The notes beneath the pieces are model-generated. The model did not search any database and was not told where the DNA came from. It was given only the letters and a program-made list of their open reading frames with translations. Below, piece by piece: positions 31,057-64,000 of a stretch of DNA of 64,000 nt; the stretch's first letter is position 1, and every line of letters begins with the position of its first letter. The translations under genes and the position numbers were made by a program. Origin of the DNA: an uncultured Gammaproteobacteria bacterium (GTDB lineage Bacteria > Pseudomonadota > Gammaproteobacteria > SG8-11); assembly GCA_964654485.1 (NCBI GenBank), contig CAZZJI010000004.1, forward strand, positions 1,104 through 65,103. Reading direction: 5' to 3'.

Positions 31057-31157
31057 AATCCCTCTCTTGAATCCCTATTCTTTCTGCAGTTGCTAACTTA
31101 TGTTTTTGATTTGAATATGTTTCCTAACGACCTTGCTAACATAAGGTTTGGCTAAAA

Positions 31158-31619: not shown

Positions 31620-31644
31620 ATTCGATAATCCTGTTTCTCTAATA

Positions 31645-32627: not shown

Positions 32628-32659
32628 AAACTAATACTTCTCTATTATTCCGCGCTGAT

Positions 32660-33984: not shown

Positions 33985-34265
33985 GTTGTGAAAAATCCTT
34001 AATTCTTATCTCACAAATACAACTTATCATTATCACCAACACCCAAATATCTAATTTTATTGAGGTTAATGGGCGTATCGCGGCCAAGTTTATCACATCC
34101 GATGTGCAGGCCATAGGACATCAAAATAGCAAAATAATGAAGCCCGTTACCAATAACCTAATAAAATAACGGTTAAGCGCCGCGCAACTCTTGCTCACGA
34201 CGAACTATCCACTAAATACTACTCCCTATTTGCTTAATGGCACATGAACGGGGTTCGCAATATTT

Positions 34266-34790: not shown

Positions 34791-34804
34791 CAAGCACGTC
34801 TGAA

Positions 34805-46770: not shown

Positions 46771-47700
46771 TTATTTTGTTCTTGCCACACGAAACCCGAC
46801 TGTACTCCACGCTTCGTGCGGCAGTATTACGCCTCTATTTGCAGATCGCATATCTACAATAAAATTATACCAGGAACCACCGCGGATAACCCTTACGCCT
46901 TCATCAAGCCCTTTATTTGAACTAACCAGCTCACTACCGTCATAGAACCCCACATAGTCTGACGCGACCCACTCCCAAACATTTCCGCTAACATCATATA
47001 ACCCGAATGGGTTCGCTAAATAGCTGCCCACAGGCACGGTCTCAACTGTACGCCAATGCGCAAAAAAAAACCGACACCTGGCTTGTTGGCAATCGCCGCT
47101 GTTACCGTTACCCCACCAGTAGCTCGTTTCAGTGCCACCACGAGCGGCATACTCCCATTCCGCTTCCGTTGGCAAACGGTATTGCTTTTCTGTTTGCTGA
47201 CTTAACCAATTGATATATGCAATTGCATCACCCCAGGACACACAAACAACCGGGTGATTATCCTTCTGCCGAAAAAGAGGATTATACCATGCGGCTTCTT
47301 TTTGCTCATGCCACACGACTTTGCGTGCAATGCAACCATCGTTCAACTCGGCTCTTGTTCGATAACCGGTTTTTTCCACAAACAATCGAAATTCTGCCAC
47401 CGTCGTTTCATATTTCGCTAACGCAAAGGGCTGTGACATTTTCACCGAGCGAATAGGCTCTTCATCGCCATCTGTCTGGTCGCTACTAATGTTCCCCATA
47501 CGAAAAATACCTGATGGTATCCACACCATTTCAGGCCCCTGCAGCCCTATATTTAACTTATCTCTAAATACAGAACCGGTATCCGCATCCCAAACAATTT
47601 TTACTGTCGTGCAGGCCGTATTTAACGAGAAAAAGACACATAATTGGAGAATTAAATAACATTTATTGAATAAATTTCCAAGCGTGAATATCTTCTCCAT
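46771..47700 (-). CDS. FGE-sulfatase (SUMF1-like) domain protein, secreted. It is the last gene of the long minus-strand array.
   Basis: 309 aa. The signature is MVWIPSGIFRMGN...GNVWEWVAS...RGGSW...VGFRVA. Confidence 0.8.
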   Translation of the reverse strand: MEKIFTLGNLFNKCYLILQLCVFFSLNTACTTVKIVWDADTGSVFRDKLNIGLQGPEMVWIPSGIFRMGNISSDQTDGDEEPIRSVKMSQPFALAKYETTVAEFRLFVEKTGYRTRAELNDGCIARKVVWHEQKEAAWYNPLFRQKDNHPVVCVSWGDAIAYINWLSQQTEKQYRLPTEAEWEYAARGGTETSYWWGNGNSGDCQQARCRFFFAHWRTVETVPVGSYLANPFGLYDVSGNVWEWVASDYVGFYDGSELVSSNKGLDEGVRVIRGGSWYNFIVDMRSANRGVILPHEAWSTVGFRVARTK

Positions 47701-47763: not shown

Positions 47764-49173
47764 TCAGGACGCATGAGCCAACTCAGGAAACGGCAAATAC
47801 TTTTTATTAAAAAACTGCATTGCCACTTCATCCGCAAAAAATCGACCACGTGGTGTCAAGAAAACTTTTTCATCATCTTCACCCAGCAAGCCCAATTTTT
47901 TCAGGCGAGCAATTGTGTCGCCAAAAAACGCTTCCACGGTCTCGCCTGTAGCCCGGTTAAATGATTGTTTATGTACAAAACTGTTTTTCAACGGCAAAAT
48001 AAATCGTCTGCGTATCTCATCATCGTGCGTTCTGACCATCCCGCGATTAACAGATACCTTACCCTCATCCACAAGCTGATAATAATTTTCTAAGTTATCA
48101 TCACCCACATTGAGCGAAAACACACCGCGCAGGTTCGACCAGGAAGAAACACCGACTCCTATTACATCGGAAAGATGGCAACATGAATCGCGCAAATAAT
48201 GCGATATATCTTTTTCCTTTTTGGCAAAAATTCGCGTTTGCCGCTCGTCAAATCCATTATCTCTTGAAATAATCAGGCCTAACATTTTCATAACATAGAT
48301 ATCATCAACTTGCGGAAATGTATTCGCTTTTTTATTATAAACTTTTAATATATTCCCCGGCCTGTCACCATGCGGTTTAATACGCAATCGATATAATTGA
48401 TAACCCTCAATATCCAAAGTAACAGCTTCTTGCATTGTCTCAACCCACTGCAGCAAATTTTGCTCAGGGTAACCATAGATAAGATCAATGAATATATTGT
48501 CGATACCCGCTTTACGAATCTGCTCTATGGCCTTCAACGTATCCGCATGAGTGTGAACGCGCCCCATGCGCGCCAATATTGAGTCATCAAATGATTGCAC
48601 ACCCATACTCAATCTATTTACACCGTAATCCTTCATTATTTTTAATTTTTCCAGACCATCTTCACCCAGTATTGTTGTTGGCTCCGGCTCCAGAGAAAAC
48701 TGGGTACAATTGGTTAAATCAAAATGAGTGGTAAATGCTTTTAAAAATCTCTCCATTTGTTTAGCAGATAAATAGGAGGGTGTACCACCGCCTATCAGTA
48801 CTGCATCCACCGGAATTTGCTCCATACCCAATTTTGAGCGGTATAAACCCATCTCTTTCTCCAAGTGGTCAAGATAATTATCCACTTCCTCCGGGCGACT
48901 TTTGGTTTTTGTAATCCAGTGGCAAAAAGTACAACGTGACGGACAAAACGGTATATGCACATAGGCAATCATAGGATTAGCGGGGCGTTCATTTATCTCG
49001 GCAAGAATTGGTTTTTCATCCATTTGCGGATACATTGTCAACGGCGGATAGCCGATAACAGGAAAAAATTTCCCGTCTGTAGGCAGAATGCCAGATGTTT
49101 TTACCTTATCAAGGCCCAGTTCACCCAATTCCATCTTAGCTTTTTCAATCCAGTTTTGTACATCCATAATCAA
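47764..49173 (-). CDS. Radical SAM enzyme of the HemN-like family (oxygen-independent coproporphyrinogen oxidase/HemW/ChuW-like)
   Basis: 469 aa. It has the CPSRCTFC radical SAM cysteine triad inside YVHIPFCPSRCTFCHW, the GGGTPS motif, and a HemN-like C-terminal domain. It lies 20 nt downstream of the double-propeller gene. Confidence 0.75.
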   Translation of the reverse strand: MIMDVQNWIEKAKMELGELGLDKVKTSGILPTDGKFFPVIGYPPLTMYPQMDEKPILAEINERPANPMIAYVHIPFCPSRCTFCHWITKTKSRPEEVDNYLDHLEKEMGLYRSKLGMEQIPVDAVLIGGGTPSYLSAKQMERFLKAFTTHFDLTNCTQFSLEPEPTTILGEDGLEKLKIMKDYGVNRLSMGVQSFDDSILARMGRVHTHADTLKAIEQIRKAGIDNIFIDLIYGYPEQNLLQWVETMQEAVTLDIEGYQLYRLRIKPHGDRPGNILKVYNKKANTFPQVDDIYVMKMLGLIISRDNGFDERQTRIFAKKEKDISHYLRDSCCHLSDVIGVGVSSWSNLRGVFSLNVGDDNLENYYQLVDEGKVSVNRGMVRTHDDEIRRRFILPLKNSFVHKQSFNRATGETVEAFFGDTIARLKKLGLLGEDDEKVFLTPRGRFFADEVAMQFFNKKYLPFPELAHAS

Positions 49174-49192: not shown

Positions 49193-51310
49193 TTATTGCT
49201 TAATTTCGGACGTCATCACCAATGCGACTGGTTTCGGCCCGGTATTTATTTCACCCACACGCTGCAAGTCACCATTTACTTTATTTAATCTAAAAATCAT
49301 AATGTTTCTTGAACCTTCATTTATGACATAGACATAATCCCCTGCAGGGCCAATAACAATATCGACCGGATCTTTACCCACAATCACTTTTTTAGAATTC
49401 TTTTTTATCAACCCAGTGGTAGTATCTACCTGATAAATAGAGACAGAACCAGATCCTTTATTTACCACGTAAATAAAGGATCCATCATGCGTTAGAGCGA
49501 TAGACACCGGTTCTTTTTCTGTCATCGTCGACCCTTCCAAGCTACGTAAACCTCCAGACTGAACATGTATTTCATAAGCCGTCAGTGTATTTGATTCTGC
49601 AGAAACAACATATGCGTACCGTCCATTGGGGTCAATCGCCATCGCATTAGCTCCATTTTTTATTTCGACAGGTGAACCAAACTCACTTGCAATCACCAAA
49701 GGTCCATCGTCATAATAATTAAAAAATGAAATATCGTTTGTTAGCGCATTTATAATATACGAATTACGCGCAGACGGATGTAATAATAACTTACTAGGTT
49801 GGCGTTCTAGTTTATATGGGGACGCGTAATACAGCCCGGTTTGTTTTAGCTCCGTTAAAGAACCGTTAGTCGCATCTATTTCAAAAACAGACATCGTGTT
49901 CGATTTAGAATTTAATGTGTAGACATATCTCCCATTGTAATCAACTGCAATTGAGTGGGGCTGTTCGCCAGTTCGATATGGCGAACCAGCAATTTCCTTT
50001 AATTTGCCGTCACGTCGGTTAATCATAAAAGCGGAGATGGTGTTTGATTTTAAATTGGCTACATATAAAAATCGATTTAGTGGATCCAGAGCAAGGGATT
50101 CCGGTGCCAAACCAGTTTTTGCTTTGGCAATTGACTTAAGCGCCCCTGTTTTATTATTAACTTTATATACACTAACCGAATCTGAATCAAAATCGGCCAG
50201 GTAAGCAAAACGTGAGGAAAATTCTACTGGCTTATCACCCATAACAAATGCAATTGACCGGGGACCAGAACGTGCCATTGTGGTCTCACCGATAGACAAT
50301 ACACCCGTTTGCTGGTTCACGGAATAAACCGTGACATGATTACTATCATAATTTGTAACAAAGGCAAAATTCCCGCCCGACTCTACTTCTACTTGAACAT
50401 TCAGACTTCCTACATTGACAAACGGTGAACCGGGGATAGGCATTAACTCACCCGTGAGCATATCGATGGAGAAACCATATGTGCCGCCAAACCAGTTTGC
50501 AACATAGAGAAATTTCCCATTCGGATGAATGGTTAAACCAAAGGGGAATACCCCCTCGCCCAATGGCAAAATATGTTTTTCCAGCAAAGCGCCACTGTCA
50601 TTGTTTATTTCAAATACGATAATTTCCCTACTATTCCAACTGCTCACAAAGGCATACTTACCCGCAGAATGTACTTTTATATACTGCGGTGCGTCTCCTG
50701 CGATAAAGGGTGAACCAGGTATATTGCTCAGTTCACCCGTTGTGCTATTCACGCGATACCCAGACACAGTGTCATCGTTGATATTCGTCATATACACGAA
50801 TCGGTCAGAGGGATGAACCGCAACAGAACGCGGTAAATACCCGCCGGGATAAGGTGACCCCTTAACTAAACTTAATGCACCGGTCTGAGAATCAATTTCC
50901 ATTACAGCAACAGCGTTGGAATTTCTACCCGCGATATATAAATATTCCCCATCTTTGTCTAATGCTGACCAAAAAGGAGAAACCACTTGCGGATCAAAAG
51001 GCGAACCCGGGAGTTCTATCAATCTCCCGGTTGAATGATTAACGCTAAACGCAGAAACTTTCATTCCAGTCTGCTCAGTAACGTAAACAAAACGACCACT
51101 AGGGTGGGCAACAACAGATGAAGGAAATCTGCCGGTGTCCACATGACCATTGTGACGTAACCGACCGGTAACACTGTCTACTGTGTACATCGAAACAGTA
51201 CTGTCATAGGCGTTTACGACATAAGCAAATTTAGGCACCACTGCATTAGCGAGCTGATATTCAAACAACACCGACAGCAAAACAATACTAGATAAACTTG
51301 ATAATCGCAT
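49193..51310 (-). CDS. Secreted tandem (double) 7-bladed beta-propeller of the lactonase / YVTN-like family
   Basis: 705 aa with a signal peptide. It has about 14 repeats of the .Y(V/I).N..S..VSV(F/Y)..(D/N)..TG.L type (YVVNAYDSTVSMYTVDSVTGRL, LYIAGRNSNAVAVMEIDSQTGAL, LYVANLKSNTISAFMINRRDGKL and others). Confidence 0.7.
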   Translation of the reverse strand: MRLSSLSSIVLLSVLFEYQLANAVVPKFAYVVNAYDSTVSMYTVDSVTGRLRHNGHVDTGRFPSSVVAHPSGRFVYVTEQTGMKVSAFSVNHSTGRLIELPGSPFDPQVVSPFWSALDKDGEYLYIAGRNSNAVAVMEIDSQTGALSLVKGSPYPGGYLPRSVAVHPSDRFVYMTNINDDTVSGYRVNSTTGELSNIPGSPFIAGDAPQYIKVHSAGKYAFVSSWNSREIIVFEINNDSGALLEKHILPLGEGVFPFGLTIHPNGKFLYVANWFGGTYGFSIDMLTGELMPIPGSPFVNVGSLNVQVEVESGGNFAFVTNYDSNHVTVYSVNQQTGVLSIGETTMARSGPRSIAFVMGDKPVEFSSRFAYLADFDSDSVSVYKVNNKTGALKSIAKAKTGLAPESLALDPLNRFLYVANLKSNTISAFMINRRDGKLKEIAGSPYRTGEQPHSIAVDYNGRYVYTLNSKSNTMSVFEIDATNGSLTELKQTGLYYASPYKLERQPSKLLLHPSARNSYIINALTNDISFFNYYDDGPLVIASEFGSPVEIKNGANAMAIDPNGRYAYVVSAESNTLTAYEIHVQSGGLRSLEGSTMTEKEPVSIALTHDGSFIYVVNKGSGSVSIYQVDTTTGLIKKNSKKVIVGKDPVDIVIGPAGDYVYVINEGSRNIMIFRLNKVNGDLQRVGEINTGPKPVALVMTSEIKQ

Positions 51311-51466: not shown

Positions 51467-54265
51467 TTACGGCACATTAGTACACGCCTCACTACTCATC
51501 GCCATCCAAAACACACCCGTAGCCCCGTTACCTGGCGCTCCGACTGAACCACAATTGGCTACCGTCCAGTTACCACTGAGTGCAAAACTAGTGACCTTTA
51601 ATACAGCTCTATTATAATAGGGACCATTAAAATACCCTGCTCTACCATCACCTGCGGGACCATTTCGAACCTGGACGCCCGATCTGTTAAATCCACCTTC
51701 AAATCCAACGTCATTTAGATTGACAAGAAAAGCCTTGTTTTTCCAACCATGCGGGACTGCAATATGACATAAATTACAGCGAAAGTTTGACACAGCATTC
51801 GCATGAAAAGTATGTAAATTCTGCGTATTCGGCATACACATCATTCCACCGCCACCACCGCTCATACGACCGCCGCCCATGCCGCCGCCGCCCATGCCAC
51901 CGCCGCCCATCATACACATACCACCACCACCACCCAGTGAAAACCCACTATTTTGAGGAAAAGCCGGTGACGGATTGCCGTATTGATTATATCGATGGCA
52001 TTTAAAACATAAATGCGTTGGCTGGCCGATACCGGTTCCGGTTGTGCGTCCACCACTCCACGGACCTTTTAACAGAAAATCATTCTCTGAACCATGCGGT
52101 CCCCAGACACGTCCATCATCACCTGCACCACCACCGCCGGTATTGCCCGTTGGAACTGATGTGCCGTTGTTGGTATCAGAACCATGGCAATCCGTGCAAT
52201 ACATGGTTTGCACACCCACAGCCAGATTAAACGGTGAGGTCCAATTGAGTTGGTTTGCATCACGAATCGCAGGTGTTCTGCCGGTGGACCTAACAACCGG
52301 ATGCCAACTACGATGATTGTTTATAGCAAATGCAGCGCCAGCGCCACTGTTAGGGGCGGTGCCTTCACCCTGATGTTCGACAGGAGAATTATATTCGCTC
52401 GCCTGATTGGTGTACTGCGTCATTTCGTTAGTACCAGATGGGGTACCACCGACAAATGAACCCAACATCGGCGGTGTATTGCCATACGCATAATTTGAGT
52501 GACACTTAAAACAAACCTGGTACTCGCGTGTTACGTAAGGGCTGGAGGTACCATCGTCACCGGGTGGCGCATCAATCGGTGGGCTGCCTCTTTTAATCGC
52601 GAAAGTAATCTGCGCATTAGGAACAGCATTAAAATTGGGGCCTGCGTAAATGGGTTCGACGCCCCATATACCCCTTAAAACACCGGAAGCGACATTAGTA
52701 TGCATTCTAACACCTCCAACAACTGCAAGGTCCGCGTCATTATGCGGGTGTGTGCCCGCTGGACCGGGATTAGCTGGGTCAGCGTTAAATAAACGATTTT
52801 TGATCACGCGGTGCGGATTATGGCAATCGGTACATTCGGCATGTCGATTAGCCAAACGCGTTTGGCTCTCGATAAAATCTTTACCGGCCTGCGGGATGCC
52901 GGGTGCATCACCTATATTGTGAACCTCTTCTGGACTATTCACCCCGAGAGACTGGTCGTCGGTGGTAATCGGCATGCGTGTTGCCAATGTAGTAAAGTCA
53001 GTTTTAATATCCGGCACTTCTGTACCAAGACCTTGGGCGGTTAATGTATTACCATCTGATGAGTGACAGGCGTAACAAGTTTGTTCAATCGCAGGTCGGC
53101 CACCCTGTTTAACCAGGTAACCACCAACAGAAACAGTAGGTCCATCTGTGCCTTCGCGCGTCAGACGTCGTGCACCCTGTACAGTGTGAGTATCATGGCA
53201 TGCAAGACAAGCCGATTCCCATGTTCGTGTACCCAATGGGAATTCTCGTACATTGGCCGCCGCATCCGTGTATATCTCATCAGCGACATCAGGATTAGCA
53301 TGTGCAGAATCAACCCAACCTGCTTTGAGGTGACAGGCAATACAGATAATATCGGCGTTAGTTCCGACGGGTGTACCTGGATTAAACCCAACATCCGCAG
53401 GTCGAGTCGATTGCAATCGGCTCAAACGTAAAAACTTAATATTCTGCTCTAATGTATCATCTCGAATATGCGGATCATGGCAGGTATTACATTGAACCTG
53501 CCCTTGCCCACCAGAATCATCCTGTAGAGGAACGATAGGCGCTGGTTGCCCACGAACCCGGGTACCAAGATGTGACTCTACTGCCGGGTCACGCATTTCA
53601 CCGTCTGCTGCCGCGAGCGCACTATCATACGTCATCGAAATGGGGTGATCATTTGTCAAATCAGTGCCAAGAAAACGAGTAAAACCAGAAAGCCGCCCAC
53701 TGGGGCCTTCAGCGATGGCACCACCCGCAATGGTGCCCGTCATCGCTATATCCTCTGTGGTACCGATTCGATCAGTAAAACGACCTTCAAATACATTGAC
53801 CGCGCCCACAGCCATTGTGCCATCATGGCACGACAGACACAGTTTCGAGATACCTGTCGGTTGTTGTAATGGCTGGCCCGGGCCAATCGCCGAATCCAGC
53901 GATCCTGAACTATAGGTAGGATACTGCGCACCAGATAATTCGCGGTTCCACAATGGACCCTCACTTACCGTGCCACCATGCGGGGCATGGCAAAAAACAC
54001 AAATTTGATTTTCTGTTACTGCCGAGACAACTCGACTTGCCCCCCCAGGCAGTTTTGGAGCAAAATCCGCAGAAAAATTATGTTTGGTATTGGAAATGTC
54101 AGAGATTCGCGCTGCGTGCGCATCAATTGAAAAAGTGGGTACGATACAAATAGCCGCCGTATAGACTAAAATCGCAGTTAATAAAACCGGGAAATATCCA
54201 TTGAAATAAGCATTTAGCTTGGCGCCGCCATAGGAAGAACGACTAAAAATCTTGCACACCCTCAT
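51467..54265 (-). CDS. Giant 11-heme c-type cytochrome (doubled-CXXCH family N-terminus) with a Met/Gly-rich insert
   Basis: 932 aa with an N-terminal TM/signal segment and 11 CXXCH motifs (CVFCH, CLSCH, CNTCH, CIACH, CLACH, CYACH, CTDCH x2, CFKCH x2, CNLCH). The N-terminus shares the HNF...C.FCH.PH / LCLSCHDGT module with the pentaheme paralogs. The insert is GGGGGMCMMGGGGMGGGGMGGGRMSGGGGGMMCM. Confidence 0.85.
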   Translation of the reverse strand: MRVCKIFSRSSYGGAKLNAYFNGYFPVLLTAILVYTAAICIVPTFSIDAHAARISDISNTKHNFSADFAPKLPGGASRVVSAVTENQICVFCHAPHGGTVSEGPLWNRELSGAQYPTYSSGSLDSAIGPGQPLQQPTGISKLCLSCHDGTMAVGAVNVFEGRFTDRIGTTEDIAMTGTIAGGAIAEGPSGRLSGFTRFLGTDLTNDHPISMTYDSALAAADGEMRDPAVESHLGTRVRGQPAPIVPLQDDSGGQGQVQCNTCHDPHIRDDTLEQNIKFLRLSRLQSTRPADVGFNPGTPVGTNADIICIACHLKAGWVDSAHANPDVADEIYTDAAANVREFPLGTRTWESACLACHDTHTVQGARRLTREGTDGPTVSVGGYLVKQGGRPAIEQTCYACHSSDGNTLTAQGLGTEVPDIKTDFTTLATRMPITTDDQSLGVNSPEEVHNIGDAPGIPQAGKDFIESQTRLANRHAECTDCHNPHRVIKNRLFNADPANPGPAGTHPHNDADLAVVGGVRMHTNVASGVLRGIWGVEPIYAGPNFNAVPNAQITFAIKRGSPPIDAPPGDDGTSSPYVTREYQVCFKCHSNYAYGNTPPMLGSFVGGTPSGTNEMTQYTNQASEYNSPVEHQGEGTAPNSGAGAAFAINNHRSWHPVVRSTGRTPAIRDANQLNWTSPFNLAVGVQTMYCTDCHGSDTNNGTSVPTGNTGGGGAGDDGRVWGPHGSENDFLLKGPWSGGRTTGTGIGQPTHLCFKCHRYNQYGNPSPAFPQNSGFSLGGGGGMCMMGGGGMGGGGMGGGRMSGGGGGMMCMPNTQNLHTFHANAVSNFRCNLCHIAVPHGWKNKAFLVNLNDVGFEGGFNRSGVQVRNGPAGDGRAGYFNGPYYNRAVLKVTSFALSGNWTVANCGSVGAPGNGATGVFWMAMSSEACTNVP
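51836..51934. repeat. Imperfect 15-bp tandem repeat (catgccgccgccgcc-type units) that encodes the Met/Gly-rich insert of the 11-heme cytochrome
   Basis: Read directly on the plus strand: ...catacgaccgccgcccatgccgccgccgcccatgccaccgccgcccatcat... Confidence 0.75.
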
Positions 54266-54556: not shown

Positions 54557-55654
54557 TCATCCTGGATTATTCAAATATTGTAAAACCACAATACGTCCGT
54601 TGAACATATCTGCAACATAAATACGGTCTTGGGAATCAGACCACACACCTGCTGGCAGGTAAAATTGGCCTATACCCGAACCTGTTCCACCAACCGGAAG
54701 CAGAAATTCTCCCGAATTATTATATACTAGCAAATAATCATAGTAGGATTCTACAACGTAAATAAGGCCTTGATCATCGACCGAAATTCCCTTTGGTCGC
54801 AGCAAATCCCCTATATTTAAGCTACGTTTACCAAATTTACTAACAAAATCCCCGTCCTTATCAAAAATTTGGATCCGCGCATTCATAGAATCAGTCACAT
54901 ACAGTTGCCCCTTATAATAACTGATAAAAGTAGGGAAATTAAACTCACCGGAGCGAACGCCGCGCTGCCCGATGACACTGAGCAGTTCACCGGAATCATC
55001 AAATATCTTTATATTGTGGGCGTGGGTATCTGAGACATAGATACGACCAAATCGCGCGTCTCGAGCCAGACCCGTCGGCCGTTTAAGAAGCCCTCTACCG
55101 AATTGTCCTAACGGTATTCCGTTGCTATCCAACCTAACGACGACGCCTAGTTCAGCATCCGCAACATAAACCTCACCGTCTTTGCCTGGTACGATGCCGA
55201 TTGGCGCAAGAAAATTGCTGCCATCTTCTGAATCAGCCTTTTCCCAGATATTCAACTCGCCCAGTTTATCATCAAATACAAATACGGCCTGCCGACTAAT
55301 GTCTGTTACATAAATACGTTTGCGCTTTTCATCAACAAAACCAGTTTGCGGCCGTTGTAAAACAACTTTTTGAGACGGCTGTGAATCTATGCCAACAAAC
55401 CACTTTACAAACCGCATAAAGACACCGTCCTCTTCGGGCTTTTTATAAAAATTATTTTCCCCGGTCAACTGCCCTATATATTTATAGCGCGGCATTTCCG
55501 GTTCGGACGGCCATACCTTGGAATCATCAACTCGATAACGTAATTCACCCCGTGTATCCGCACAACTGGAGAGAAAAACTGTAAAAACAAGAAAAATGAG
55601 TAGCGAGGAAATTCGTTTATTTAACATTATTCTTGTCACAAATAGTTTATACAA
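54557..55654 (-). CDS. NHL-repeat six-bladed beta-propeller lipoprotein
   Basis: 365 aa. The lipobox is LSSCADT. The blades are IYVTDISRQAVFVFD, VYVADAELGVVVRLD, IYVSDTHAHNIKIFD, LYVTDSMNARIQIFD, IYVVESYYDYLLVYN and IYVADMFNGRIVVLQ. Confidence 0.85.
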   Translation of the reverse strand: MYKLFVTRIMLNKRISSLLIFLVFTVFLSSCADTRGELRYRVDDSKVWPSEPEMPRYKYIGQLTGENNFYKKPEEDGVFMRFVKWFVGIDSQPSQKVVLQRPQTGFVDEKRKRIYVTDISRQAVFVFDDKLGELNIWEKADSEDGSNFLAPIGIVPGKDGEVYVADAELGVVVRLDSNGIPLGQFGRGLLKRPTGLARDARFGRIYVSDTHAHNIKIFDDSGELLSVIGQRGVRSGEFNFPTFISYYKGQLYVTDSMNARIQIFDKDGDFVSKFGKRSLNIGDLLRPKGISVDDQGLIYVVESYYDYLLVYNNSGEFLLPVGGTGSGIGQFYLPAGVWSDSQDRIYVADMFNGRIVVLQYLNNPG

Positions 55655-55705: not shown

Positions 55706-56824
55706 TTACTGAACTTTAAAAAGATTCTGATCTAATCCGTCTTCCGGAACCACATCGAAAACCTGCACCCGTCTATTTAAGCTATCAGCAACATATAATT
55801 GCTGCTCTTTTGACATCCACATATCAGTAATCGATCGAAAACGACCTGGCGCTGAACCGCTACCCCCTAGCGTCGCGATGAGTCTGATATCATCATAAAC
55901 TCTGATTGTGTTATCGGATTTATCGCTAACATAGACACGCTGTTCCTTATCCAATGCAATCGCGGTTGGCCAGATCAAATCGCCTTCACCCAGACTAAAT
56001 CTGAATCGTCCGGCTGCGCCAGGATCCAATCCCAATTCTTGCACGGGTAACTCAAGACGGTCAGCTATAAAAATACTATTACTTCTTCCTTTCGCTATTG
56101 CAGTAATCGCACGAAATTTTCCTGGTCCCGTTCCACGTGATCCAACGGCACTTAATGGAATACCTAATTTGCTAAATATCACTACGTGACTGAAACTACC
56201 ATCGGCCACATACACTTGACCCGTTAAATCATCAACCATAACATCGATTGGCCGCGATAAATTTACCAGATCACTGTACTGGCGAATTAAATTGCCCAAT
56301 TCATCAAAATACAAAACACGCTTGCCAACTGGGTCCGTTATATAAAAACTCAAATCGGATTCAACGTAAATACTCGTCGGCTCACCTTTAAGCTGCTGGC
56401 CAGCGACACCGAGAACTTCTATCGTTTCGTCAACAGTATTATATCGATAAATAGAAGAGTCACCGCCATCAACGATGTAAAGAAAATTACCGTAACCACC
56501 AACCGCGACGGGTTTTATAAATTTAACTTGCTGACCATCACCACCAACAATAATGCGAGTAAATTCGCCAACCGCACCGTCCAGCTTTAACTTACCACCG
56601 CGTATAATACCTGATGGTCTCAAGACTTCCGGCTCATCACTGCGTTTAAAACGAAGATTTGGCGACGTAGCTGCTGCTGCGGATCCGTCCTCAGATGACT
56701 GTTCACCATCTGTAACTGCTTTTTTAAATTCCGCTAAAGTACAACCAGTAGTTGCCCCAATGAACAAAAAAATTAAACTGGCAATAACGATCAGCAACGG
56801 CGTCAACGTACGTCCAGTTAACAT
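55706..56824 (-). CDS. NHL-repeat beta-propeller lipoprotein. The probable start is the Met at about 56824; the ORF-track start at 56893 overlaps the upstream gene.
   Basis: The lipobox is LFIGATTGC. The blades are LYIVDGGDSSIYRYN, FYITDPVGKRVLYFD, VYVADGSFSHVVIFS, IFIADRLELPVQ, VYVSDKSDNTIRVYD and LYVADSLNRRVQVFD. Confidence 0.8.
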   Translation of the reverse strand: MLTGRTLTPLLIVIASLIFLFIGATTGCTLAEFKKAVTDGEQSSEDGSAAAATSPNLRFKRSDEPEVLRPSGIIRGGKLKLDGAVGEFTRIIVGGDGQQVKFIKPVAVGGYGNFLYIVDGGDSSIYRYNTVDETIEVLGVAGQQLKGEPTSIYVESDLSFYITDPVGKRVLYFDELGNLIRQYSDLVNLSRPIDVMVDDLTGQVYVADGSFSHVVIFSKLGIPLSAVGSRGTGPGKFRAITAIAKGRSNSIFIADRLELPVQELGLDPGAAGRFRFSLGEGDLIWPTAIALDKEQRVYVSDKSDNTIRVYDDIRLIATLGGSGSAPGRFRSITDMWMSKEQQLYVADSLNRRVQVFDVVPEDGLDQNLFKVQ

Positions 56825-56829
56825 TATCC

Positions 56830-56870
56830 TGGTTAGCGAAGACCTACGCCTGATTAGCGAAGACCTACGC
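56830..56870. repeat. 20-bp tandem duplication (ttagcgaagacctacgc x2) covering the stop codon of the triheme cytochrome gene and the 5' UTR of the NHL gene
   Basis: Read directly as ggttagcgaagacctacgcctgattagcgaagacctacgctttcg. The second copy contains the TAA stop of the 56854-57495 gene. Confidence 0.8.
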
Positions 56871-57495
56871 TTTCGCGCGGAACACTGTGACATCGATTAC
56901 ACTCCAATGGAGGAAAGGCGACTTTGCCATGGCACACACCACAATATTCACCTTCAATTATTGCCGCCATAGTGACAAAATTACCGCCACGTTGCGGTAA
57001 AAATATTCCAGGATGGCAGTTTTTGCATGTGAGCCATTTAGTATGCGGTAAATGAGGAAATCGAACATAAGGCATAGACGCGGTATTTCGAAAAATAACA
57101 TCAAAATCCACTGAATGCATTTTCTCTTCACCAGTGATGCCGGTGCGCGGTGAAATCAGGCCTTTGTTCAGTGTTTCTACCCAATTTATGACACCACGTT
57201 TATCACGCGGGAAATTAGCCATCGCTTCAGCTGGCGGTTGCAAGATCTTAACTGCATCATTTGTTGGATCATGCACACCATCTTCAGCGATCGAAACGAC
57301 ATCCCCATGTAATTGAAAATGACCCGTGCCTTCTTCGCCAATGGCCGGGCCAAATACAAACATACACACTGTAAAAAACAATGTTGATATATACCTATAT
57401 ACAACCATACCCTTTCTCGCGCCCATTAATTCGACTTCATTCACCCATCGTGTTGTATAAAATCTTTTTGCCCTTTTACTATATATGCCATACAC
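56854..57495 (-). CDS. Small triheme c-type cytochrome, secreted (paralog family A)
   Basis: 213 aa with a signal peptide. The heme motifs are CKNCHPGIFLPQR, CGVCHGKVAFP and CNRCHS. The HTKWLTC..CHP..F.PQR..N..TMAAI..GE.CGVCHGKV.FP...C..CHS pattern is shared with the genes at 59613 and 60321. Confidence 0.85.
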   Translation of the reverse strand: MYGIYSKRAKRFYTTRWVNEVELMGARKGMVVYRYISTLFFTVCMFVFGPAIGEEGTGHFQLHGDVVSIAEDGVHDPTNDAVKILQPPAEAMANFPRDKRGVINWVETLNKGLISPRTGITGEEKMHSVDFDVIFRNTASMPYVRFPHLPHTKWLTCKNCHPGIFLPQRGGNFVTMAAIIEGEYCGVCHGKVAFPPLECNRCHSVPRESVGLR

Positions 57496-57621: not shown

Positions 57622-59190
57622 CTACTGACTTACCCCTGCTATGCGCAATGCACGCCTGACTTGGGTTGTAGCCGACAACATCATCGCAATAGCTGTTGGA
57701 AAATCACCTTGCTTTGCTTTTTTAATTGCATCATCGCGCTGACTTCTTCCTTTCACAACGAATCCATCCATAAGTTTCACGGCACCCGGCGCTGGTTTTT
57801 TCCTGGCAATGGCGACAGGTACTAATTCTTCATAACCGGCAAATCGCTTTAATTCATATTGATATTCTTCTTCTGCCGTTTCAAAATTCAGATCATATAC
57901 AATTGTTTGGGAATCAAGCATAACATTGATCGCACTAGTCACGATATTTTCTGCTTTTTCTAACAAAGGAATCGCCTTTAAGTATTTACGTGTATCAGCA
58001 AATGTCTTCGCTTCTTGTAGCAAAGATGTGACTTCTTTTTTGTCGTAATCAACCACTGCCTGTTTGCCACGTGTTTTAACCGTTTGATCCTTGCTTATCT
58101 TATGCGATTGCTCAAAGTTCTTTACAGAATCAAGCAATTCCATATACCGGGCATTTCTTTCCTCTAAGACCTCTTCGCTTGGCACTAACCTGGATGACGT
58201 ACCAATCAAGCGTAATACATCATCTGCAAAAGCCAACGCTTTCTCATTATCACCGGAAGAAAGGTGCTTGCGCGCTTTACCCATTTTTTCCCTAGCCGAA
58301 TTCAACATATTTTTTGCTTCTTTATTATTACTTGCATCTACGCGCTTGGTACCTTTAGACACAAGCATCATGTCAGCAAACGTCATTTTCTGCTTAAGCT
58401 TTGCGATAGAAACTTTCGCTTTTGTTGCTTTCGAGGACTTACCTGCACTTGCTGTAGAAATCTTAACACTCGCAATTAATTTATTGATTTTCGCTTCAGA
58501 TGCATCCTTGTTGACGACAAATATCTTGCCCCCCATTGCGCTGTGGTTTTGACATTGATAATAAATGACATCCGGCATCTTATTGTCAGGCGTTATTTCT
58601 ATTATACCTTTGTAGGTAAACTGCCCCTTAATCCCATCTATAACCACACCGCCACCCCAGCCTACTGGACTCGTGGAAAAATAAACGTCATGCAATACAT
58701 CAGTTCGGACATCAAATTGATAGCGTTCACCACGTCGCATGGCGATTGTTTTTCCTTGCACATCATCCAATGAAAAACCTAATATATGCCCTTTGCCAAA
58801 TGAAGGATGTGATTCATTTTTTTCCGCCACGGTGACTATATAATAATTCGGATCCAATTTTTTGGACGACACATCAGGTTTTTTTGCTTCCGCTGGCTTA
58901 TCAACGGGCGCGGGTTGAATCTCTGAAGTGACATCGGCGGGCATTTCTGTTACTTCGGGAATAGTCGTAATCGGCAACGGCTGCACCATTACAATGGGTT
59001 CATCCGGGGAAACATCATCTTCCTTCGCTTTTGCCTGTTGTTCTTTTTCTTTAGCTGAGGGTTCAACCGGAGCTTCAATGATAGTTGCTGACTGCTCGGC
59101 GGGCATCTGTTCGTTTTTATCGAGCGAGCCGCACGCGGGCACAAAAAGAAAGACTATGAAAAAAAGGGTAAATTTAATGTTCGAGTTCAT
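57622..59190 (-). CDS. Lipoprotein with an amicyanin/plastocyanin-like cupredoxin domain (predicted type 1 copper site) plus a long C-terminal helical domain of unknown function
   Basis: 522 aa. The lipobox is FVPACGS. A Pro/Glu-rich linker follows. The cupredoxin signature is GKGHILGF...YYQCQNHSAMGGKIFVV, with Cys-x2-His-x2-Met spacing as in amicyanin. Confidence 0.55.
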   Translation of the reverse strand: MNSNIKFTLFFIVFLFVPACGSLDKNEQMPAEQSATIIEAPVEPSAKEKEQQAKAKEDDVSPDEPIVMVQPLPITTIPEVTEMPADVTSEIQPAPVDKPAEAKKPDVSSKKLDPNYYIVTVAEKNESHPSFGKGHILGFSLDDVQGKTIAMRRGERYQFDVRTDVLHDVYFSTSPVGWGGGVVIDGIKGQFTYKGIIEITPDNKMPDVIYYQCQNHSAMGGKIFVVNKDASEAKINKLIASVKISTASAGKSSKATKAKVSIAKLKQKMTFADMMLVSKGTKRVDASNNKEAKNMLNSAREKMGKARKHLSSGDNEKALAFADDVLRLIGTSSRLVPSEEVLEERNARYMELLDSVKNFEQSHKISKDQTVKTRGKQAVVDYDKKEVTSLLQEAKTFADTRKYLKAIPLLEKAENIVTSAINVMLDSQTIVYDLNFETAEEEYQYELKRFAGYEELVPVAIARKKPAPGAVKLMDGFVVKGRSQRDDAIKKAKQGDFPTAIAMMLSATTQVRRALRIAGVSQ

Positions 59191-59513
59191 GGCTAATCAC
59201 CTGAGAAAATTGATCTAACGCGGGTTCATGATTGGCTTAAGCGTAGGACCATCCTGAACCTGACTACCTTATCCAGACCATATAAATATCCAGACCCATA
59301 TAAATATAATTCAGTGCATTCTCTATCTCTCCTGTTCGCACTGCCAACTTATCTTGTTATCGGCAAAAAATCGAATTGATTGATTGATACTTTCCTCTAA
59401 TAATGCATTAAAAATTGCTCTGTTGTTGCTCTATGTAAAAGTGCAACCGTCAAAACAAACCAATACTTTTAAAATGGAATTTATCAACCAAAAACTATTT
59501 ACCTCAGTTAATT

Positions 59514-59555
59514 AAGCTTAAAAATACAAACGGTGCAGGTTAAATCACCTGCACC
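59514..59555 (-). terminator. Rho-independent terminator downstream of the triheme cytochrome gene at 59613-60305
   Basis: On the minus strand a perfect 9-bp stem (GGTGCAGGT gattta ACCTGCACC) is followed by gtttgtatttttaag. Confidence 0.7.
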
Positions 59556-59612
59556 GCTGAGTTTTCTGCACTTCTTTCATCTGATAAAAGTACAGCTAGG
59601 TAAAGGTACCAA

Positions 59613-60305
59613 TTACCTCCAGGGGTTTTTAACACTCGCCTGACTCAAAGGTGGTTTCCAATTTTTTGGTTTGGGTTTGGAATGGCATTTTTTGCACGAC
59701 TTAGTGGTAACCGGAAAAGACACTTTACCGTGACACACGCCGCATTTTTCACCCAAAAGTATTGCAGACATCGTTATCTGGTTCGCATTTCTTTGTGGAA
59801 TGAAAATCTTTGGGTGGCAATTGGAACAATGCAACCATTGTGTATGCGGTTTGTGTGGAAAAACCACATCCGGCATGGATGCTTTTACTTCACGCACAAT
59901 GTCTAAATCCATAATAAGTGGCTCAACGGTAGGATCTATACGATCATAGCGAGGCTTCAAATAGCCCTTGTCGAGTGATTGCACCCAATCGACGTAATTA
60001 CCAAATGGCGTCGTTGGTAAGCCTTTGTAAGATATTTTCGGCGGTTGCAGCACATGCGTACCTTCATTAGCCGGATCATGAATACCGTCCTCCGCTGGCG
60101 GTGCATTTTTTTCCTTATCCTTTTTAAGCAGGCGATTAAAAACATTCGCCTTGGTCACATTGCCGCTTTGACCTTGAACGGGCTTTAATTTCATCGTTTT
60201 CTTTGTTGCACCGACTTCAGCCGCGTAAACATTCGCCATAGCAAATGTTAAACCAAACGCACAAACGGTACAGGCAGCCGCTAACAACCTATTGATTTTA
60301 TTCAT
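59613..60305 (-). CDS. Small triheme c-type cytochrome, secreted (paralog family A)
   Basis: 230 aa with a signal peptide. The heme motifs are CSNCHPKIFIPQR, CGVCHGKVSFP and CKKCHS. Confidence 0.85.
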   Translation of the reverse strand: MNKINRLLAAACTVCAFGLTFAMANVYAAEVGATKKTMKLKPVQGQSGNVTKANVFNRLLKKDKEKNAPPAEDGIHDPANEGTHVLQPPKISYKGLPTTPFGNYVDWVQSLDKGYLKPRYDRIDPTVEPLIMDLDIVREVKASMPDVVFPHKPHTQWLHCSNCHPKIFIPQRNANQITMSAILLGEKCGVCHGKVSFPVTTKSCKKCHSKPKPKNWKPPLSQASVKNPWR

Positions 60306-60320
60306 TTTTATTTCATCCCC

Positions 60321-60764
60321 TTATTGCGCGCTCTTTACACCACCTGGCAGCGCTTTATACTGTGGCGCGACTAAACGTTGAATCGTACTCCCGTGGATCT
60401 GTGTCGGTGTTCCAGGAATGCCCGAGTGACACATTCCACAGTTTTCCACGGACCAGGCAATTTCACCGTTATGACAGGCGCCGCAAAATTGGCCGTCAAT
60501 AATTTTAGCCATCGTGATCTTGTTTCCACCTGCTTTAAATTTAAACCCGAGATCGGCATGGCATACTTTGCAGCGAAATCTAATACGATGATACCAATGC
60601 GGAAATACGGCGGGTCGCATACCTGCGGCATCAGCATAATTATTTATTACTACATCCGCGTACTCTGCCTGTGCAGATTGTGGGATCATTATGACGCTAA
60701 GACTGCTTATTAAAGCAAATAAAATTGCCTTCCATTTCACGAGATATTCCAAAAGTGATCTCAT
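60321..60764 (-). CDS. Small triheme c-type cytochrome, secreted (shorter member of paralog family A)
   Basis: 147 aa with a signal peptide. The heme motifs are CKVCHADLGF, CGACHNGEIAW and CGMCHSG. Confidence 0.85.
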   Translation of the reverse strand: MRSLLEYLVKWKAILFALISSLSVIMIPQSAQAEYADVVINNYADAAGMRPAVFPHWYHRIRFRCKVCHADLGFKFKAGGNKITMAKIIDGQFCGACHNGEIAWSVENCGMCHSGIPGTPTQIHGSTIQRLVAPQYKALPGGVKSAQ

Positions 60765-60875: not shown

Positions 60876-62765
60876 CTAGAAGCTTCGTGTAGCCGAAAAG
60901 TTAACACCAAGCGTCCTTTCTCCTTCAGGAGCTTCAGTTATTCGGATATTAAGCTTGGTTGATAATAAACCAATTGCGTAGGAAAATGAATTTACCCAGG
61001 TTAGATTCCCTCTTTGTGAATCTCCATCTGCTAACAACCTTTCTTGTCTTAATGTCGAGGCATAAGTTAACGCAAATACACCAAATAACCGACTATGGCG
61101 GTAGGCAAACCGGATAGAAGCAGATTCTTCTGTATCTGAGGCCCCAGGTTCGATCGTCAAGGGATTGTCAGTTTTAGAAGCTTGATAATTAAAATTTCCG
61201 GATGCTGAACTAAGACGATTTATCCCCTGATTTCGGGCTAGTGAGAGTGAAGCTAATTGAAATACTACCCCGTCCTCTTCGAGTGTCCGTGAGTCAGAAA
61301 CAGCAACGTTGAAAATTGTGTTGCCACCCCAACCCAGGTGATTCACGCTGGTATTAAAACTTATAGAATGTGCTTTAGTCAGCTCGTCTGTTTCTGTATC
61401 CTCCGTGGATAAAGTCGAATCATTGTCATCTGGAAAACGTTTTGAAACGGCTAAATTTTCTGAAAAACCAAAATTTAAATTTCCACTGTCGAATAGCCAG
61501 GATCTGCTCGCGGCATGACCAATTGACACACTGGCGCTTTGACTACTGGTTTTCGTGTCCTCTACGGGGGGGACTGCAGCCGGATTGCCGTCCAGTTTAC
61601 TATTTGCATTACTGACACTACCGCTCAAGTTCCAGTTATAAAAAAAATCAAAAATGGTCGTCGGGGAGGAAAAAAAACCGATTGTTCCAATTTCGGAGGA
61701 ATTAAGTGACTGCCTACCTTCAGATTCACTTGAATTAGCATTAATCGTTAAATTACCACGTATTTGGCGAGAAAATATATACGACATCGTTAAACCGATG
61801 CCTACCGCACTAGTCTCGACACTGTCCCGAACGCTATTGTCGGTCGTCGTTTTGGAAAAACGCGCACCACCTGACACGGAATAGGGTTTATGCTCAGGTC
61901 GCCAAGAGGCGCTTGTGGACACCTGATTAACCGACGACTCACTACCAGAACCGCCCACCGATTCCGATTTAGACGTGGAATGGCTGAATAATGAAGTAAT
62001 CCCCATTTCTGCACTTGGTAAATACCCGTGCGTCGCGGTTAACGATAAGCTTGTGGAATTATTACCAACATCCTGTTGTTCTGTATCAATATAACTACTA
62101 TCAATACTATAACGCTGTTTAGCCCAGGATCGATTAACGCGTAACCCGGCAATGCTGGATAGAAAATTGCTAAACAATGACTCGAAATCAGATCGATTAT
62201 AGAAAAAATTGATATGCGTACGATCATATGTTGTATACGCCTGTGATATCCCTATGCGTCTGGTCTTGGTTATCAGCGTCGTGGATAACAAACCTTCCTC
62301 TGCATTTGATATACTTTCTGACTCATTTCGACTAAGCGCATAGGTTAATCGAAAAGGAAAGCGACTTAGTGGGAAAACCGCAAACGCCAGATTAACAGTA
62401 TTGGATGTAAAATTACTCTCAGGCGCGTTACTACTGGTGCTCTCACTTGTTGCCAGCCCGAAACCCAACCCTGCTGACATAGTGGCAAACCACGGTCGCC
62501 AAATAGCGCTGTTACCAGCGACATTAACCCTGATCAAATTAACTTCTGATTCCCGATTATTGGTTTTATTAAAACTGTATGTATAACCTATACTTCCGCT
62601 TAAATTTAAACCGTAGGGATCATAAAATTCAGCTCGAGCGGACGTTTGCCCAATCAAGAGCAAGGACAGCCCCAAAAAGCACAATTGAAAAAATTTCGAA
62701 TTCCTCAGTACGGGCTTGTTTACTATCACTACTCCAAACACTCCCCAAAGCGGTTGCCAATACAC
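60876..62765 (-). CDS. Large putative outer-membrane beta-barrel protein (porin-like), secreted
   Basis: 629 aa with a signal peptide (FLGLSLLLIGQTSARA). It has an amphipathic alternating pattern, is rich in Ser, Thr, Asn and Gly, and has the C-terminal aromatic residue (…ATRSF) typical of OMP beta-barrels. Confidence 0.55.
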   Translation of the reverse strand: MYWQPLWGVFGVVIVNKPVLRNSKFFQLCFLGLSLLLIGQTSARAEFYDPYGLNLSGSIGYTYSFNKTNNRESEVNLIRVNVAGNSAIWRPWFATMSAGLGFGLATSESTSSNAPESNFTSNTVNLAFAVFPLSRFPFRLTYALSRNESESISNAEEGLLSTTLITKTRRIGISQAYTTYDRTHINFFYNRSDFESLFSNFLSSIAGLRVNRSWAKQRYSIDSSYIDTEQQDVGNNSTSLSLTATHGYLPSAEMGITSLFSHSTSKSESVGGSGSESSVNQVSTSASWRPEHKPYSVSGGARFSKTTTDNSVRDSVETSAVGIGLTMSYIFSRQIRGNLTINANSSESEGRQSLNSSEIGTIGFFSSPTTIFDFFYNWNLSGSVSNANSKLDGNPAAVPPVEDTKTSSQSASVSIGHAASRSWLFDSGNLNFGFSENLAVSKRFPDDNDSTLSTEDTETDELTKAHSISFNTSVNHLGWGGNTIFNVAVSDSRTLEEDGVVFQLASLSLARNQGINRLSSASGNFNYQASKTDNPLTIEPGASDTEESASIRFAYRHSRLFGVFALTYASTLRQERLLADGDSQRGNLTWVNSFSYAIGLLSTKLNIRITEAPEGERTLGVNFSATRSF

Positions 62766-63186: not shown

Positions 63187-64000
63187 CTACTTCTGCACAA
63201 CCTTATATACTGACTTATCCACATCTATTTTTGTCTCAGATCTGAGTTTTTTTATCAAATCCACCCAGGCTTTTTGCCCACGCTCGCGCTTAACAAGGCC
63301 TATTACGGTATCTTTAACCCGCTCATAGCTGTTGATCGTGATTGCTATACGTTCATCAAGCCTGAAAATAGCCACGCCCTGCAGGATAACAACAGGCTCT
63401 GAGACATCTCCAGGATCCATAATATCGATAATTTCTTGTGCTGGCTTAGCGAGCATACCCTTATGTATGTAACCCATATCTCCGCCTTGTGGAGCCGAAT
63501 CATCACCGGAGTGAATTCGCGCCATTTCAGCAAAGTCGGCACCATTTCTTAATTGCGCCACCAATTCATTGGCTTGTTCCGTCGTATCTCGCCATACCTG
63601 ACTGCCTGACGAAGGATCTACTTTTAATAAAATTGTGAAAACGCGCAATTGCTCTGGAATCGTAAATTTATCAGGATTATTTTCAAAGTGAGCCTGAAGA
63701 TCTTTTTCTTGCGGAGGACCGACTTCCTTAACCTTTTTCTCCAGTAGCTTAATCAAGCTATCATGTTCATATTCTTCCCGAATGCCAGGTAAAAGTAGAT
63801 CTCTGTTCTGCTCCCAATTTTTGTCGTTTTCTTTTTTTCTTTTCGCTTCAAATCTCTCAATCTTATTATCAACCACCTCTTTATCTGGTTTAATACCCTG
63901 TCGTTTCGCTTCCCGAACCAATAAAACCCGGTTGATATATTCTTGTCCTACCTGTTCACGAAATTGTTCCATTTCTTTGTCAGGCACTTTTGCGTGAAAA
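63187..64000 (-). CDS. SurA/PpiD-like periplasmic chaperone with a parvulin-type PPIase domain. The N-terminus runs off the window end.
   Basis: The parvulin signature is GGDMGYIHKGMLAKPAQEIIDIMDPGDVSEPVVILQGVAIFRLDER. The frame stays open past the GTG at 63985-63987 to position 64000. Confidence 0.65.
   Translation of the reverse strand, partial: FHAKVPDKEMEQFREQVGQEYINRVLLVREAKRQGIKPDKEVVDNKIERFEAKRKKENDKNWEQNRDLLLPGIREEYEHDSLIKLLEKKVKEVGPPQEKDLQAHFENNPDKFTIPEQLRVFTILLKVDPSSGSQVWRDTTEQANELVAQLRNGADFAEMARIHSGDDSAPQGGDMGYIHKGMLAKPAQEIIDIMDPGDVSEPVVILQGVAIFRLDERIAITINSYERVKDTVIGLVKRERGQKAWVDLIKKLRSETKIDVDKSVYKVVQK

Follow-up and report, generated by a model that had tools for sequence, protein, structure and literature searches.

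A predicted cupredoxin lipoprotein of the UetF kind in an undecahaem electron transfer cluster of an uncultured gammaproteobacterium

Within a stretch of 64,000 nucleotides (hereafter the window) of contig CAZZJI010000004.1 (assembly GCA_964654485.1) from an uncultured gammaproteobacterium we found a gene for a probable lipoprotein that combines a predicted cupredoxin domain with a large helical domain and that lies among genes for multihaem cytochromes. The open reading frame (ORF) runs from an ATG to a stop codon at positions 57622-59190 of the minus strand and encodes 522 amino acids (aa). These are exactly the coordinates given in a sequence-only reading of the window, which had described the product as a cupredoxin-domain lipoprotein, and the peptides quoted there are present in the translation. 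An identical protein is on record (P0001), and more than 179 full-length homologs of it were found. The gene is a new member of the known UetF kind, UetF being part of the undecahaem electron transfer (uet) cluster, and we consider it probable that the protein acts in this cluster as a tethered type 1 copper relay with a helical docking domain. The uet system is one of few candidate pathways for the uptake of electrons from electrodes or minerals, as in biocathodes, iron oxidation and the ennoblement of steel.

Assignment to the uet cluster followed from the neighbourhood of the gene. The order on the minus strand is a peptidyl-prolyl isomerase, a protein of ~630 aa without family assignment, two c7-type cytochromes, the gene described here, a third c7-type cytochrome, two NHL-repeat proteins and an 11-haem cytochrome (Table 1). 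Gene for gene this is the order uetB-C-D-E-F-G-H-I-J of the uetABCDEFGHIJ cluster published for Candidatus Tenderia electrophaga and the Tenderiales, in which F is listed as 'Cupredoxin UetF' and which was proposed to be a porin-cytochrome system for electron uptake from extracellular or solid donors (bioRxiv 10.1101/2022.05.06.490989). The uetA position falls beyond the end of the window. That the gene is embedded among trihaem cytochromes, as the sequence-only reading had it, was borne out by the flanking genes, which are c7-type with three CXXCH motifs each. On four other contigs (L002-L005) homologs with 39-45% identity have the same gene order around them, except that in L002 no isomerase lies directly upstream of the barrel-position gene. 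The isomerase position is kept in L003-L005 and L078, the uetC position is taken by a family-less protein of 577-647 aa in L002-L005 and L078, and 11 CXXCH motifs were counted in the equivalent large cytochrome of every related locus scanned. The PCC3 of iron oxidisers was also considered as the identity of this cluster and was rejected, Uet being preferred on the published cluster descriptions.

The Ca. Tenderia protein (Tel_16525 / ALP54627.1) resembles the window protein in several respects. It occupies the same slot between the second and third trihaem c7 genes, with the same flanking order from the isomerase to the 11-haem cytochrome and with ccsAB, a tetratricopeptide repeat (TPR) gene and ccm genes nearby. 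Its cupredoxin was likewise predicted within a protein 'much larger' than classical cupredoxins, with a TPR-like helical part. The host of the window belongs to a gammaproteobacterial lineage of metagenome-assembled genomes (MAGs) with ~43% GC, and the two are likened by position and content. A metatranscriptome paper of 2017 had called Tel_16525 a tetratricopeptide-repeat protein; the gene appears to be cotranscribed with the three trihaem genes, whose expression on the cathode ranked among the highest, and peptides of its product were found (PMC5371394). The two labels, TPR in 2017 and cupredoxin in 2022, fit the two folded domains predicted for the window protein, one helical and one cupredoxin. 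The idea of a blue-copper carrier within a multihaem chain, which the sequence-only reading had put forward as a mixed haem/copper electron chain, is reasonable and has already been published for uet; its extension to copper handling, treated below, was not supported. The ligands, lipobox, linker and domain modularity reported here are additions that are not contained in either publication (bioRxiv 10.1101/2022.05.06.490989; PMC5371394).

A cupredoxin fold was predicted with high confidence by structure prediction, which the sequence-only reading had named as a check together with a profile search. The AlphaFold2 model, built on an alignment of 29 homologous sequences, contains an eight-strand β-domain at residues ~111-230, with a predicted local distance difference test score (pLDDT) of ~90 over residues 111-240, a value reached by the helical domain as well. 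Almost all of the 50 best Foldseek matches to this domain in the PDB were cupredoxins or cupredoxin domains of multicopper oxidases. Rusticyanin was the top match (E = 2.1e-3, probability 1.0), and multicopper-oxidase domains, plastocyanin and amicyanin were also recovered with probabilities of 0.98-1.0, the TM-scores normalised to the target being 0.44-0.53 for rusticyanin, plastocyanin and amicyanin. Among curated models the domain is recognised by PF25489 alone, the 'At5g54830-like domain', which is named after a plant cytochrome b561/DOMON protein. It matched 18 of 18 domain sequences tested, with a best E value of 1.7e-6. Two relatives exceed its gathering threshold of 27 bits (P0354 with 34.7 bits over profile positions 10-125 of 126, and P0287 with 28.0 bits); the window protein stays below it, both as isolated domain (18.1 bits) and at full length (13.9 bits), and its match is confined to the C-terminal third of the profile. 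We regard the cupredoxin assignment as well supported computationally.

The candidate copper ligands were strictly conserved. The protein contains YYQCQNHSAMGGKIFVV, within which C213-x2-H216-x2-M219 is found, and these three residues as well as His167 are invariant in the 29-sequence alignment. Two larger sets were compared, namely 121 close homologs and a distant set. The latter was drawn from a search with the helical domain against 1.84 billion representative proteins, which gave 842 relatives at E <= 1e-3 (50%-identity representatives); among the best 150 of these, 56 carry the cupredoxin as judged by motif search. Every one of the 121 close homologs has C-x2-H-x2-M, as has every cupredoxin-bearing representative of the distant set (56 of 56), and the stretch around His167 reads HDVY in all 121 of the former and H-D-x-Y in all 56 of the latter. 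The spacing from His to Cys is 46 residues, rarely 47 or 48, and the best 150 of the 842 representatives contained no cupredoxin-like variant without these ligands. Such strict invariance over deep divergence implies selection on what would be a functional metal site.

Amicyanin from Paracoccus denitrificans (1AAC) offers the closest comparison for this site. It shares the cupredoxin fold (Foldseek probability 0.98-0.99) and the identical His...Cys-x2-His-x2-Met pattern. When the profile of the isolated domain was aligned with amicyanin using hhalign (E = 1.5e-4; the amicyanin sequence was confirmed to be identical to 1aac_A), all four ligands fell into register, H167 on His53, C213 on Cys92, H216 on His95 and M219 on Met98, in an alignment that is marginal with ~24% identity over 66 columns. 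The predicted site therefore corresponds to the canonical type 1 ligand set with the loop length of amicyanin, and the shared fold and alignment register suggest that the ligands cluster around one site. The amicyanin-type loop had been recognised by the sequence-only reading, and it proved present, invariant and in register; the upstream ligand had to be reassigned. That reading took the His of GKGH (H135) as a ligand, but at this position two members of the 29-sequence alignment have Ser, and His is kept in 108 of 115 among the close homologs and in 29 of 55 among the distant members, where S, D, N, A, G, K and T replace it. We rejected it because it is variable in distant members and because H167 in LHDVYF, the canonical N-terminal ligand, falls on amicyanin His53.

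There are also clear differences from amicyanin, which is a soluble single domain of 105 aa serving methylamine dehydrogenase, whereas UetF is fused to a tether and a helical domain. Residues 173-184 (STSPVGWGGGVV) form a conserved GWG-containing insertion of 12 residues after the ligand-His strand, with GWGG invariant. The β1-β2 loop is extended and carries an invariant HP motif, whose His128 (codon at 58807-58809) is invariant in the 29-sequence alignment; HP was found in 121 of 121 close homologs and the His in 54 of 55 distant ones. Neither His128 nor the GWG insertion is accounted for by a classical type 1 site. With likely ligands (H167/C213/H216/M219), domain boundaries and tether defined, UetF is now directly testable, for instance as a soluble domain of 118 residues.

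The protein contains only two cysteines, Cys213 within YYQCQNHSAM and Cys20, the latter at the end of a hydrophobic signal sequence. A lipobox had been proposed before, and the sequence FVPAC ending at Cys20 is indeed lipobox-like, although the Pro at position -2 of this V-P-A-C box is atypical; P0002, a protein 86% identical to that of the window, shows the canonical VSAC. In the 29-sequence alignment Cys20 is nearly invariant, and a lipobox was recognised by pattern in 103 of 121 close homologs. The protein is most likely lipid-anchored through Cys20. In Escherichia coli the residue at +2 of the lipobox Cys sets the membrane destination of a lipoprotein. Following this sorting rule the anchor would probably be in the outer membrane, because Asp never occurs at +2 in the close homologs, which have G, S, A or T there. 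The Pro/Glu-rich linker of the sequence-only reading was recovered at residues 21-112. It is rich in Pro, Glu, Lys and Ala (P13 E12 K10 A10) with a net charge of -9, and residues 16-110 have a pLDDT <50 in the AlphaFold2 model, i.e. are predicted to be disordered. Linker length in homologs has a median of 106 aa, with the 10th to 90th percentile at 79-134. Fully extended, a linker of 90 residues could span the periplasm.

Lipobox and long tether would also be compatible with exposure on the cell surface in the manner of MtrC-type lipoprotein cytochromes. Electrons from Fe(II), minerals or electrodes would then enter directly at the blue copper centre, before they reach the haem chain. We consider this highly unlikely. 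Rusticyanin as the top Foldseek match and the proposed use of extracellular donors by uet (bioRxiv 10.1101/2022.05.06.490989) speak for such a role, but the lead of rusticyanin is marginal (E = 2e-3 versus 1e-2), nothing in our analysis points to surface export, the flanking trihaem cytochromes are predicted to be periplasmic (bioRxiv 10.1101/2022.05.06.490989), and helical-only relatives carry the same tether in contexts other than extracellular electron transfer.

The C-terminal domain comprises ~260-290 aa and is all-helical, with ten helices from residue ~260 onward, and is the most conserved part of the protein. It had been described as having no obvious family, and this remained so, as all curated family models stayed below threshold and no related structure was recovered from the PDB. 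A dedicated model of the domain (pLDDT 88) gave nothing better than E = 0.15 in a Foldseek search against the PDB, and a PDB profile search yielded weak matches to MIT, TPR and designed-helix proteins (~1e-3). YfdX (PF10938), a family of periplasmic helical proteins, gave 13.3 bits for the window domain against a gathering threshold of 26.6 bits; a few relatives are borderline with 25.3-27.0 bits. The match covers the first half of the domain (in P0273 positions 7-145 of 149), so that the half with the TIVYDLNFE loop lies outside it, and the YfdX structure in the PDB (6uxt) aligned with the helical profile at E = 3, while Foldseek recovered no YfdX. HEPN, TPR, FliS and YfdX labels were all rejected as sub-threshold or inconsistent. 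The conserved loop of the domain reads TIVYDLNFE...EEYxYExxR...YEELxPxA.

The helical domain was C-terminal in 150 of the best 150 of the 842 representatives. The 56 of these with a cupredoxin, to which three N-terminally truncated fragments come in addition, have a median length of 518 aa, and the 94 without one have a median of 307 aa. In a uet cluster of Gallionella the UetF position is filled by a helical-only protein of 314 aa. The helical-only proteins of Gallionella and Noviherbaspirillum align end to end with the helical domain of the window protein and have the loop T-I-V-Y-D-x-x-F...E-E-Y-x-Y-E-x-x-R in common with it. A pangenome study of Gallionellaceae had included UetF among its BLAST queries and did not list it among the Uet components detected, which may be because the protein at the UetF position of Gallionella is helical-only. 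Some Gammaproteobacteria also encode a lipobox, linker and helical domain without cupredoxin. One such gene, in a Thiohalomonadales MAG (L046, 9722-10858), lies outside any uet cluster among CheA-like, CheB, GGDEF, TPR, DUF1178 and HlyD/AcrB genes, which indicates that the family is not restricted to electron-transfer loci. Noviherbaspirillum sp. ST 5-3, a cultured betaproteobacterium with a complete genome, carries two tandem, diverged helical-only copies in a uet-like cluster of its chromosome (L065, 9860-10807 and 10782-11750) and could be a tractable system for the study of this domain.

By these distributions the helical domain is the constant part of the family and the cupredoxin an optional insert, which goes beyond the uet publications cited here. 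Uet clusters as a whole can do without the cupredoxin, and this changes which part of the protein counts as essential to the pathway. The 46-residue spacing from His to Cys suggests a single gain of the cupredoxin module. UetF might tentatively be seen as one instance of a modular design, so far unrecognised, in which one lineage of a widespread family of tethered helical-domain proteins inserted a blue-copper cupredoxin between tether and helical domain. Such a protein would shuttle single electrons on its leash across the periplasm, between the outer-membrane porin-cytochrome conduit and the inner-membrane oxidases. The helical domain would provide the core function, and the copper module would be a lineage-specific addition that adjusts the potential of the uptake chain. 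We offer this extended picture as a possibility that we rate as rather unlikely.

The same observations support a serious rival, in which the protein is primarily a structural scaffold or adaptor whose TPR/MIT-like helical domain bridges the trihaem cytochromes, the NHL propellers and the porin, and whose cupredoxin is an accessory that contributes little to the main path of electrons, for instance as a side branch or redox sensor. The universal conservation of the helical domain, the 94 of the best 150 of the 842 representatives that lack a cupredoxin, the helical-only proteins at the UetF position of betaproteobacterial uet clusters and the weak profile matches to TPR, MIT and YfdX-type proteins all fit a scaffold. 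On the other hand, the four ligands are strictly invariant wherever the cupredoxin is present, which argues for a functional metal site and not for a decaying accessory, and the helical family also occurs outside uet clusters. The scaffold is moreover compatible with a relay and partly overlaps with it. As the primary role of the protein we regard it as unlikely.

For the tethered copper relay that we favour, the following arrangement is proposed. The protein would be held by its lipid at Cys20, probably in the outer membrane, and would carry its two folded domains on a flexible acidic tether of ~90 residues. The cupredoxin would bind one type 1 (blue) copper through His167, Cys213, His216 and Met219 and serve as a one-electron relay of relatively high potential, passing electrons, in the presumed direction of flow, between the periplasmic trihaem c7 cytochromes UetD/E/G and downstream acceptors, which may be oxidases or a bc1/ACIII branch. 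Via its invariant exposed loop (TIVYDLNFE, EEYxYE) the helical domain would serve to attach the protein to other components of Uet. In function the protein may be likened to rusticyanin, a blue-copper relay among c-type cytochromes in the electron uptake of iron oxidation. The likeness to rusticyanin (Acidithiobacillus ferrooxidans, 1RCY) is structurally one of fold only. Rusticyanin is a soluble protein of an acidophile, with an N-terminal extension and a Cys-x4-His-x4-Met loop. In architecture the nearest analogy would be Laz, the lipid-modified azurin of Neisseria, a tethered electron carrier of the cell envelope with lipobox, Ala/Glu/Pro-rich linker and cupredoxin. Laz has an azurin-type domain on a linker of ~40 aa, lacks a C-terminal helical domain and serves nitrite reductase and peroxidase instead of a porin-cytochrome system.

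Several points weigh against a copper relay of the UetF kind. No cupredoxin model of Pfam or NCBIfam (Copper-bind, Cupredoxin_1 etc.) matched the full protein, and none matched the isolated domain even at E values up to 10, which means that the claim of the sequence-only reading had rested on a motif. A PDB sequence search with the full protein returned noise only, and a PDB profile search with the domain gave a weak match to pseudoazurin (E = 0.009). The hhalign probability for amicyanin was only 52%, and a profile alignment with plastocyanin was rejected as spurious (probability 0.9%). The geometry of the ligands is taken from homology, and the fifth, near-invariant histidine His128 could mean a different or additional metal site. 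Orthology to UetF of Ca. Tenderia (ALP54627.1) rests on position, cluster content and domain content; no entry named Tenderia was met in the genome scan or in the protein searches, including one seeded from the distant HDFY clade. The evidence on family members consists of transcripts and peptides. Betaproteobacterial uet clusters (Gallionella, Noviherbaspirillum) lack the cupredoxin at the UetF position, so the cupredoxin cannot be an obligatory link in the chain, and the members of the helical family outside uet weaken the idea of a dedicated Uet docking module.

A copper-handling or copper-dependent function had been suggested by the sequence-only reading from the blue-copper carrier together with a Met-rich cytochrome insert and the FGE genes, and the link to the last two was not supported across loci. 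The insert is a Gly/Met-rich low-complexity stretch (GGGGGMCMMGGGGMGGGGMGGGRMSGGGGGMMCM) at residues 772-811 of the undecahaem cytochrome (51833-51952, minus strand), between haems 10 and 11. Of 11 clusters with a cupredoxin, 6 have the insert, and these belong without exception to the sub-clade of the window (L002, L004, L009, L020 etc.); none of the 7 clusters without a cupredoxin has it. HDFY-clade clusters with cupredoxin and betaproteobacterial undecahaem cytochromes lack it. Confined to this sub-clade, the insert follows lineage and not the cupredoxin. Four paralogs with an FGE-sulfatase domain (43836-44951, 45007-45891, 45898-46728 and 46771-47700) lie beside the cluster in the window, as does a HemN-like radical SAM gene (47764-49173). 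Five distinct neighbourhoods with a cupredoxin were read, and FGE genes lie next to the cluster in only 2 of them, the window and L002 (two genes), and not in L003-L005. The link of insert and FGE genes to copper handling was rejected as lineage-specific.

Copper handling without electron carriage might still be considered in the form of periplasmic tolerance or delivery, maybe for haem-copper oxidases, as in CopI, a cupredoxin-like protein with extra His/Met sites. A second site could be made up of the invariant His128 and the often conserved His135, which both lie on the β1-β2 loop, and the Gly/Met insert and the FGE-type genes in the window would agree with such a function. However, insert and FGE genes show the patchy distribution just described, the domain contains no Met/His-rich tract, and roughly half of the distant members have another residue in place of His135. 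The gene is also embedded between cytochrome genes, with which it appears to be cotranscribed in Ca. Tenderia (PMC5371394). We therefore judge this role to be highly improbable.

Table 1. Features of the uetF-like gene, of its product and of neighbouring genes (positions in the window)
Feature	Position	Strand	Basis or remark
uetF-like gene, 522-aa probable lipoprotein	57622..59190	-	ORF; stop codon included
Signal peptide up to lipobox Cys20 (FVPAC/GS)	59131..59190	-	Cys20 conservation, lipobox pattern
Disordered Pro/Glu/Lys/Ala-rich tether, residues 21-112	58855..59130	-	pLDDT, composition
Predicted cupredoxin domain, residues 113-230	58501..58854	-	AlphaFold2, Foldseek, hhalign, PF25489
β1-β2 loop with invariant His128 (HP) and variable His135 (GKGH)	58786..58809	-	Alignments
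His167 codon (HDVYF), proposed N-terminal Cu ligand	58690..58692	-	Invariance; amicyanin His53 register
Proposed ligand loop Cys213-x2-His216-x2-Met219	58534..58554	-	Invariance; amicyanin Cys92/His95/Met98 register
Lys/Ser/Ala-rich interdomain segment, residues 231-260	58411..58500	-	pLDDT <50 over 244-257; composition
C-terminal ten-helix domain, residues 261-522	57625..58410	-	Dedicated model, pLDDT 88
PpiC/SurA-type peptidyl-prolyl isomerase, uetB position	63187..63987	-	Pfam Rotamase; maybe N-terminally truncated near window end
629-aa protein, uetC position, putative outer-membrane barrel	60876..62765	-	No Pfam/NCBIfam match; barrel assignment from published description
Trihaem c7-type cytochrome, uetD position	60321..60764	-	PF14522, TIGR04257, three CXXCH
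Trihaem c7-type cytochrome, uetE position	59613..60305	-	PF14522, TIGR04257, three CXXCH
Trihaem c7-type cytochrome, uetG position	56854..57495	-	PF14522, TIGR04257, three CXXCH
NHL-repeat β-propeller, uetH position	55706..56893	-	Pfam NHL; position conserved (L002-L005)
NHL-repeat β-propeller lipoprotein, uetI position	54557..55654	-	Pfam NHL 8.8e-25; position conserved (L002-L005)
932-aa undecahaem cytochrome, uetJ position	51467..54265	-	Exactly 11 CXXCH
ResB/CcsA (ccsB/ccsA), TPR gene and thioredoxin-like gene	34266-37361	-	Parallels Ca. Tenderia
CcmA, B, C, E, F	29032-33984	-	Parallels Ca. Tenderia

Near the cluster, on the minus strand (29032-37361), lie genes for both systems of cytochrome c maturation; in Ca. 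Tenderia uet is adjoined by ccsAB, a TPR gene and a maturation system of type I (bioRxiv 10.1101/2022.05.06.490989). Directly after the undecahaem gene the window encodes a protein of 705 aa with two lactonase-type seven-bladed β-propellers (49193-51310, minus strand). A double β-propeller gene of this kind, ~700 aa in length, also follows uetJ in L002-L005. It is outside the published uet list of Ca. Tenderia, so this branch of uet clusters may have in it an accessory that has gone unrecognised.

The ORF at the uetG position starts at a GTG and has 213 aa, whereas the gene call on the identical contig L001 has 184 aa. The real start of uetG is therefore probably near 57408, which would make the gap between uetF and uetG ~213 bp and not 126 bp. 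Upstream of uetF there is an unusually long gap of 422 bp, for which a scan against Rfam gave no match. Within it, ~55 bp past the uetE stop codon, lies a strong terminator-like hairpin (59529-59558, minus strand) with a 12-bp stem, 7 G-C pairs and a T-rich tail, and after the hairpin a promoter-like site follows at 59318-59347 (TTGGCA-18-GAGAAT). Judged from these signals, hairpin and promoter-like site could form an intra-operon attenuator that sets the expression ratio of trihaem cytochromes to UetF.

Three different UetF homologs of gammaproteobacterial type (P0069, P0083 and P0090; accession WP_455205288.1) are labelled 'Kaarinaea lacus' in NCBI. We rejected Kaarinaea lacus as a cultured host, as it is a cyanobacterium of the Nostocales and the entries lie on contigs of 4-10 kb. 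The short contigs and the cyanobacterial label make it likely that these UetF entries stem from contaminant contigs.

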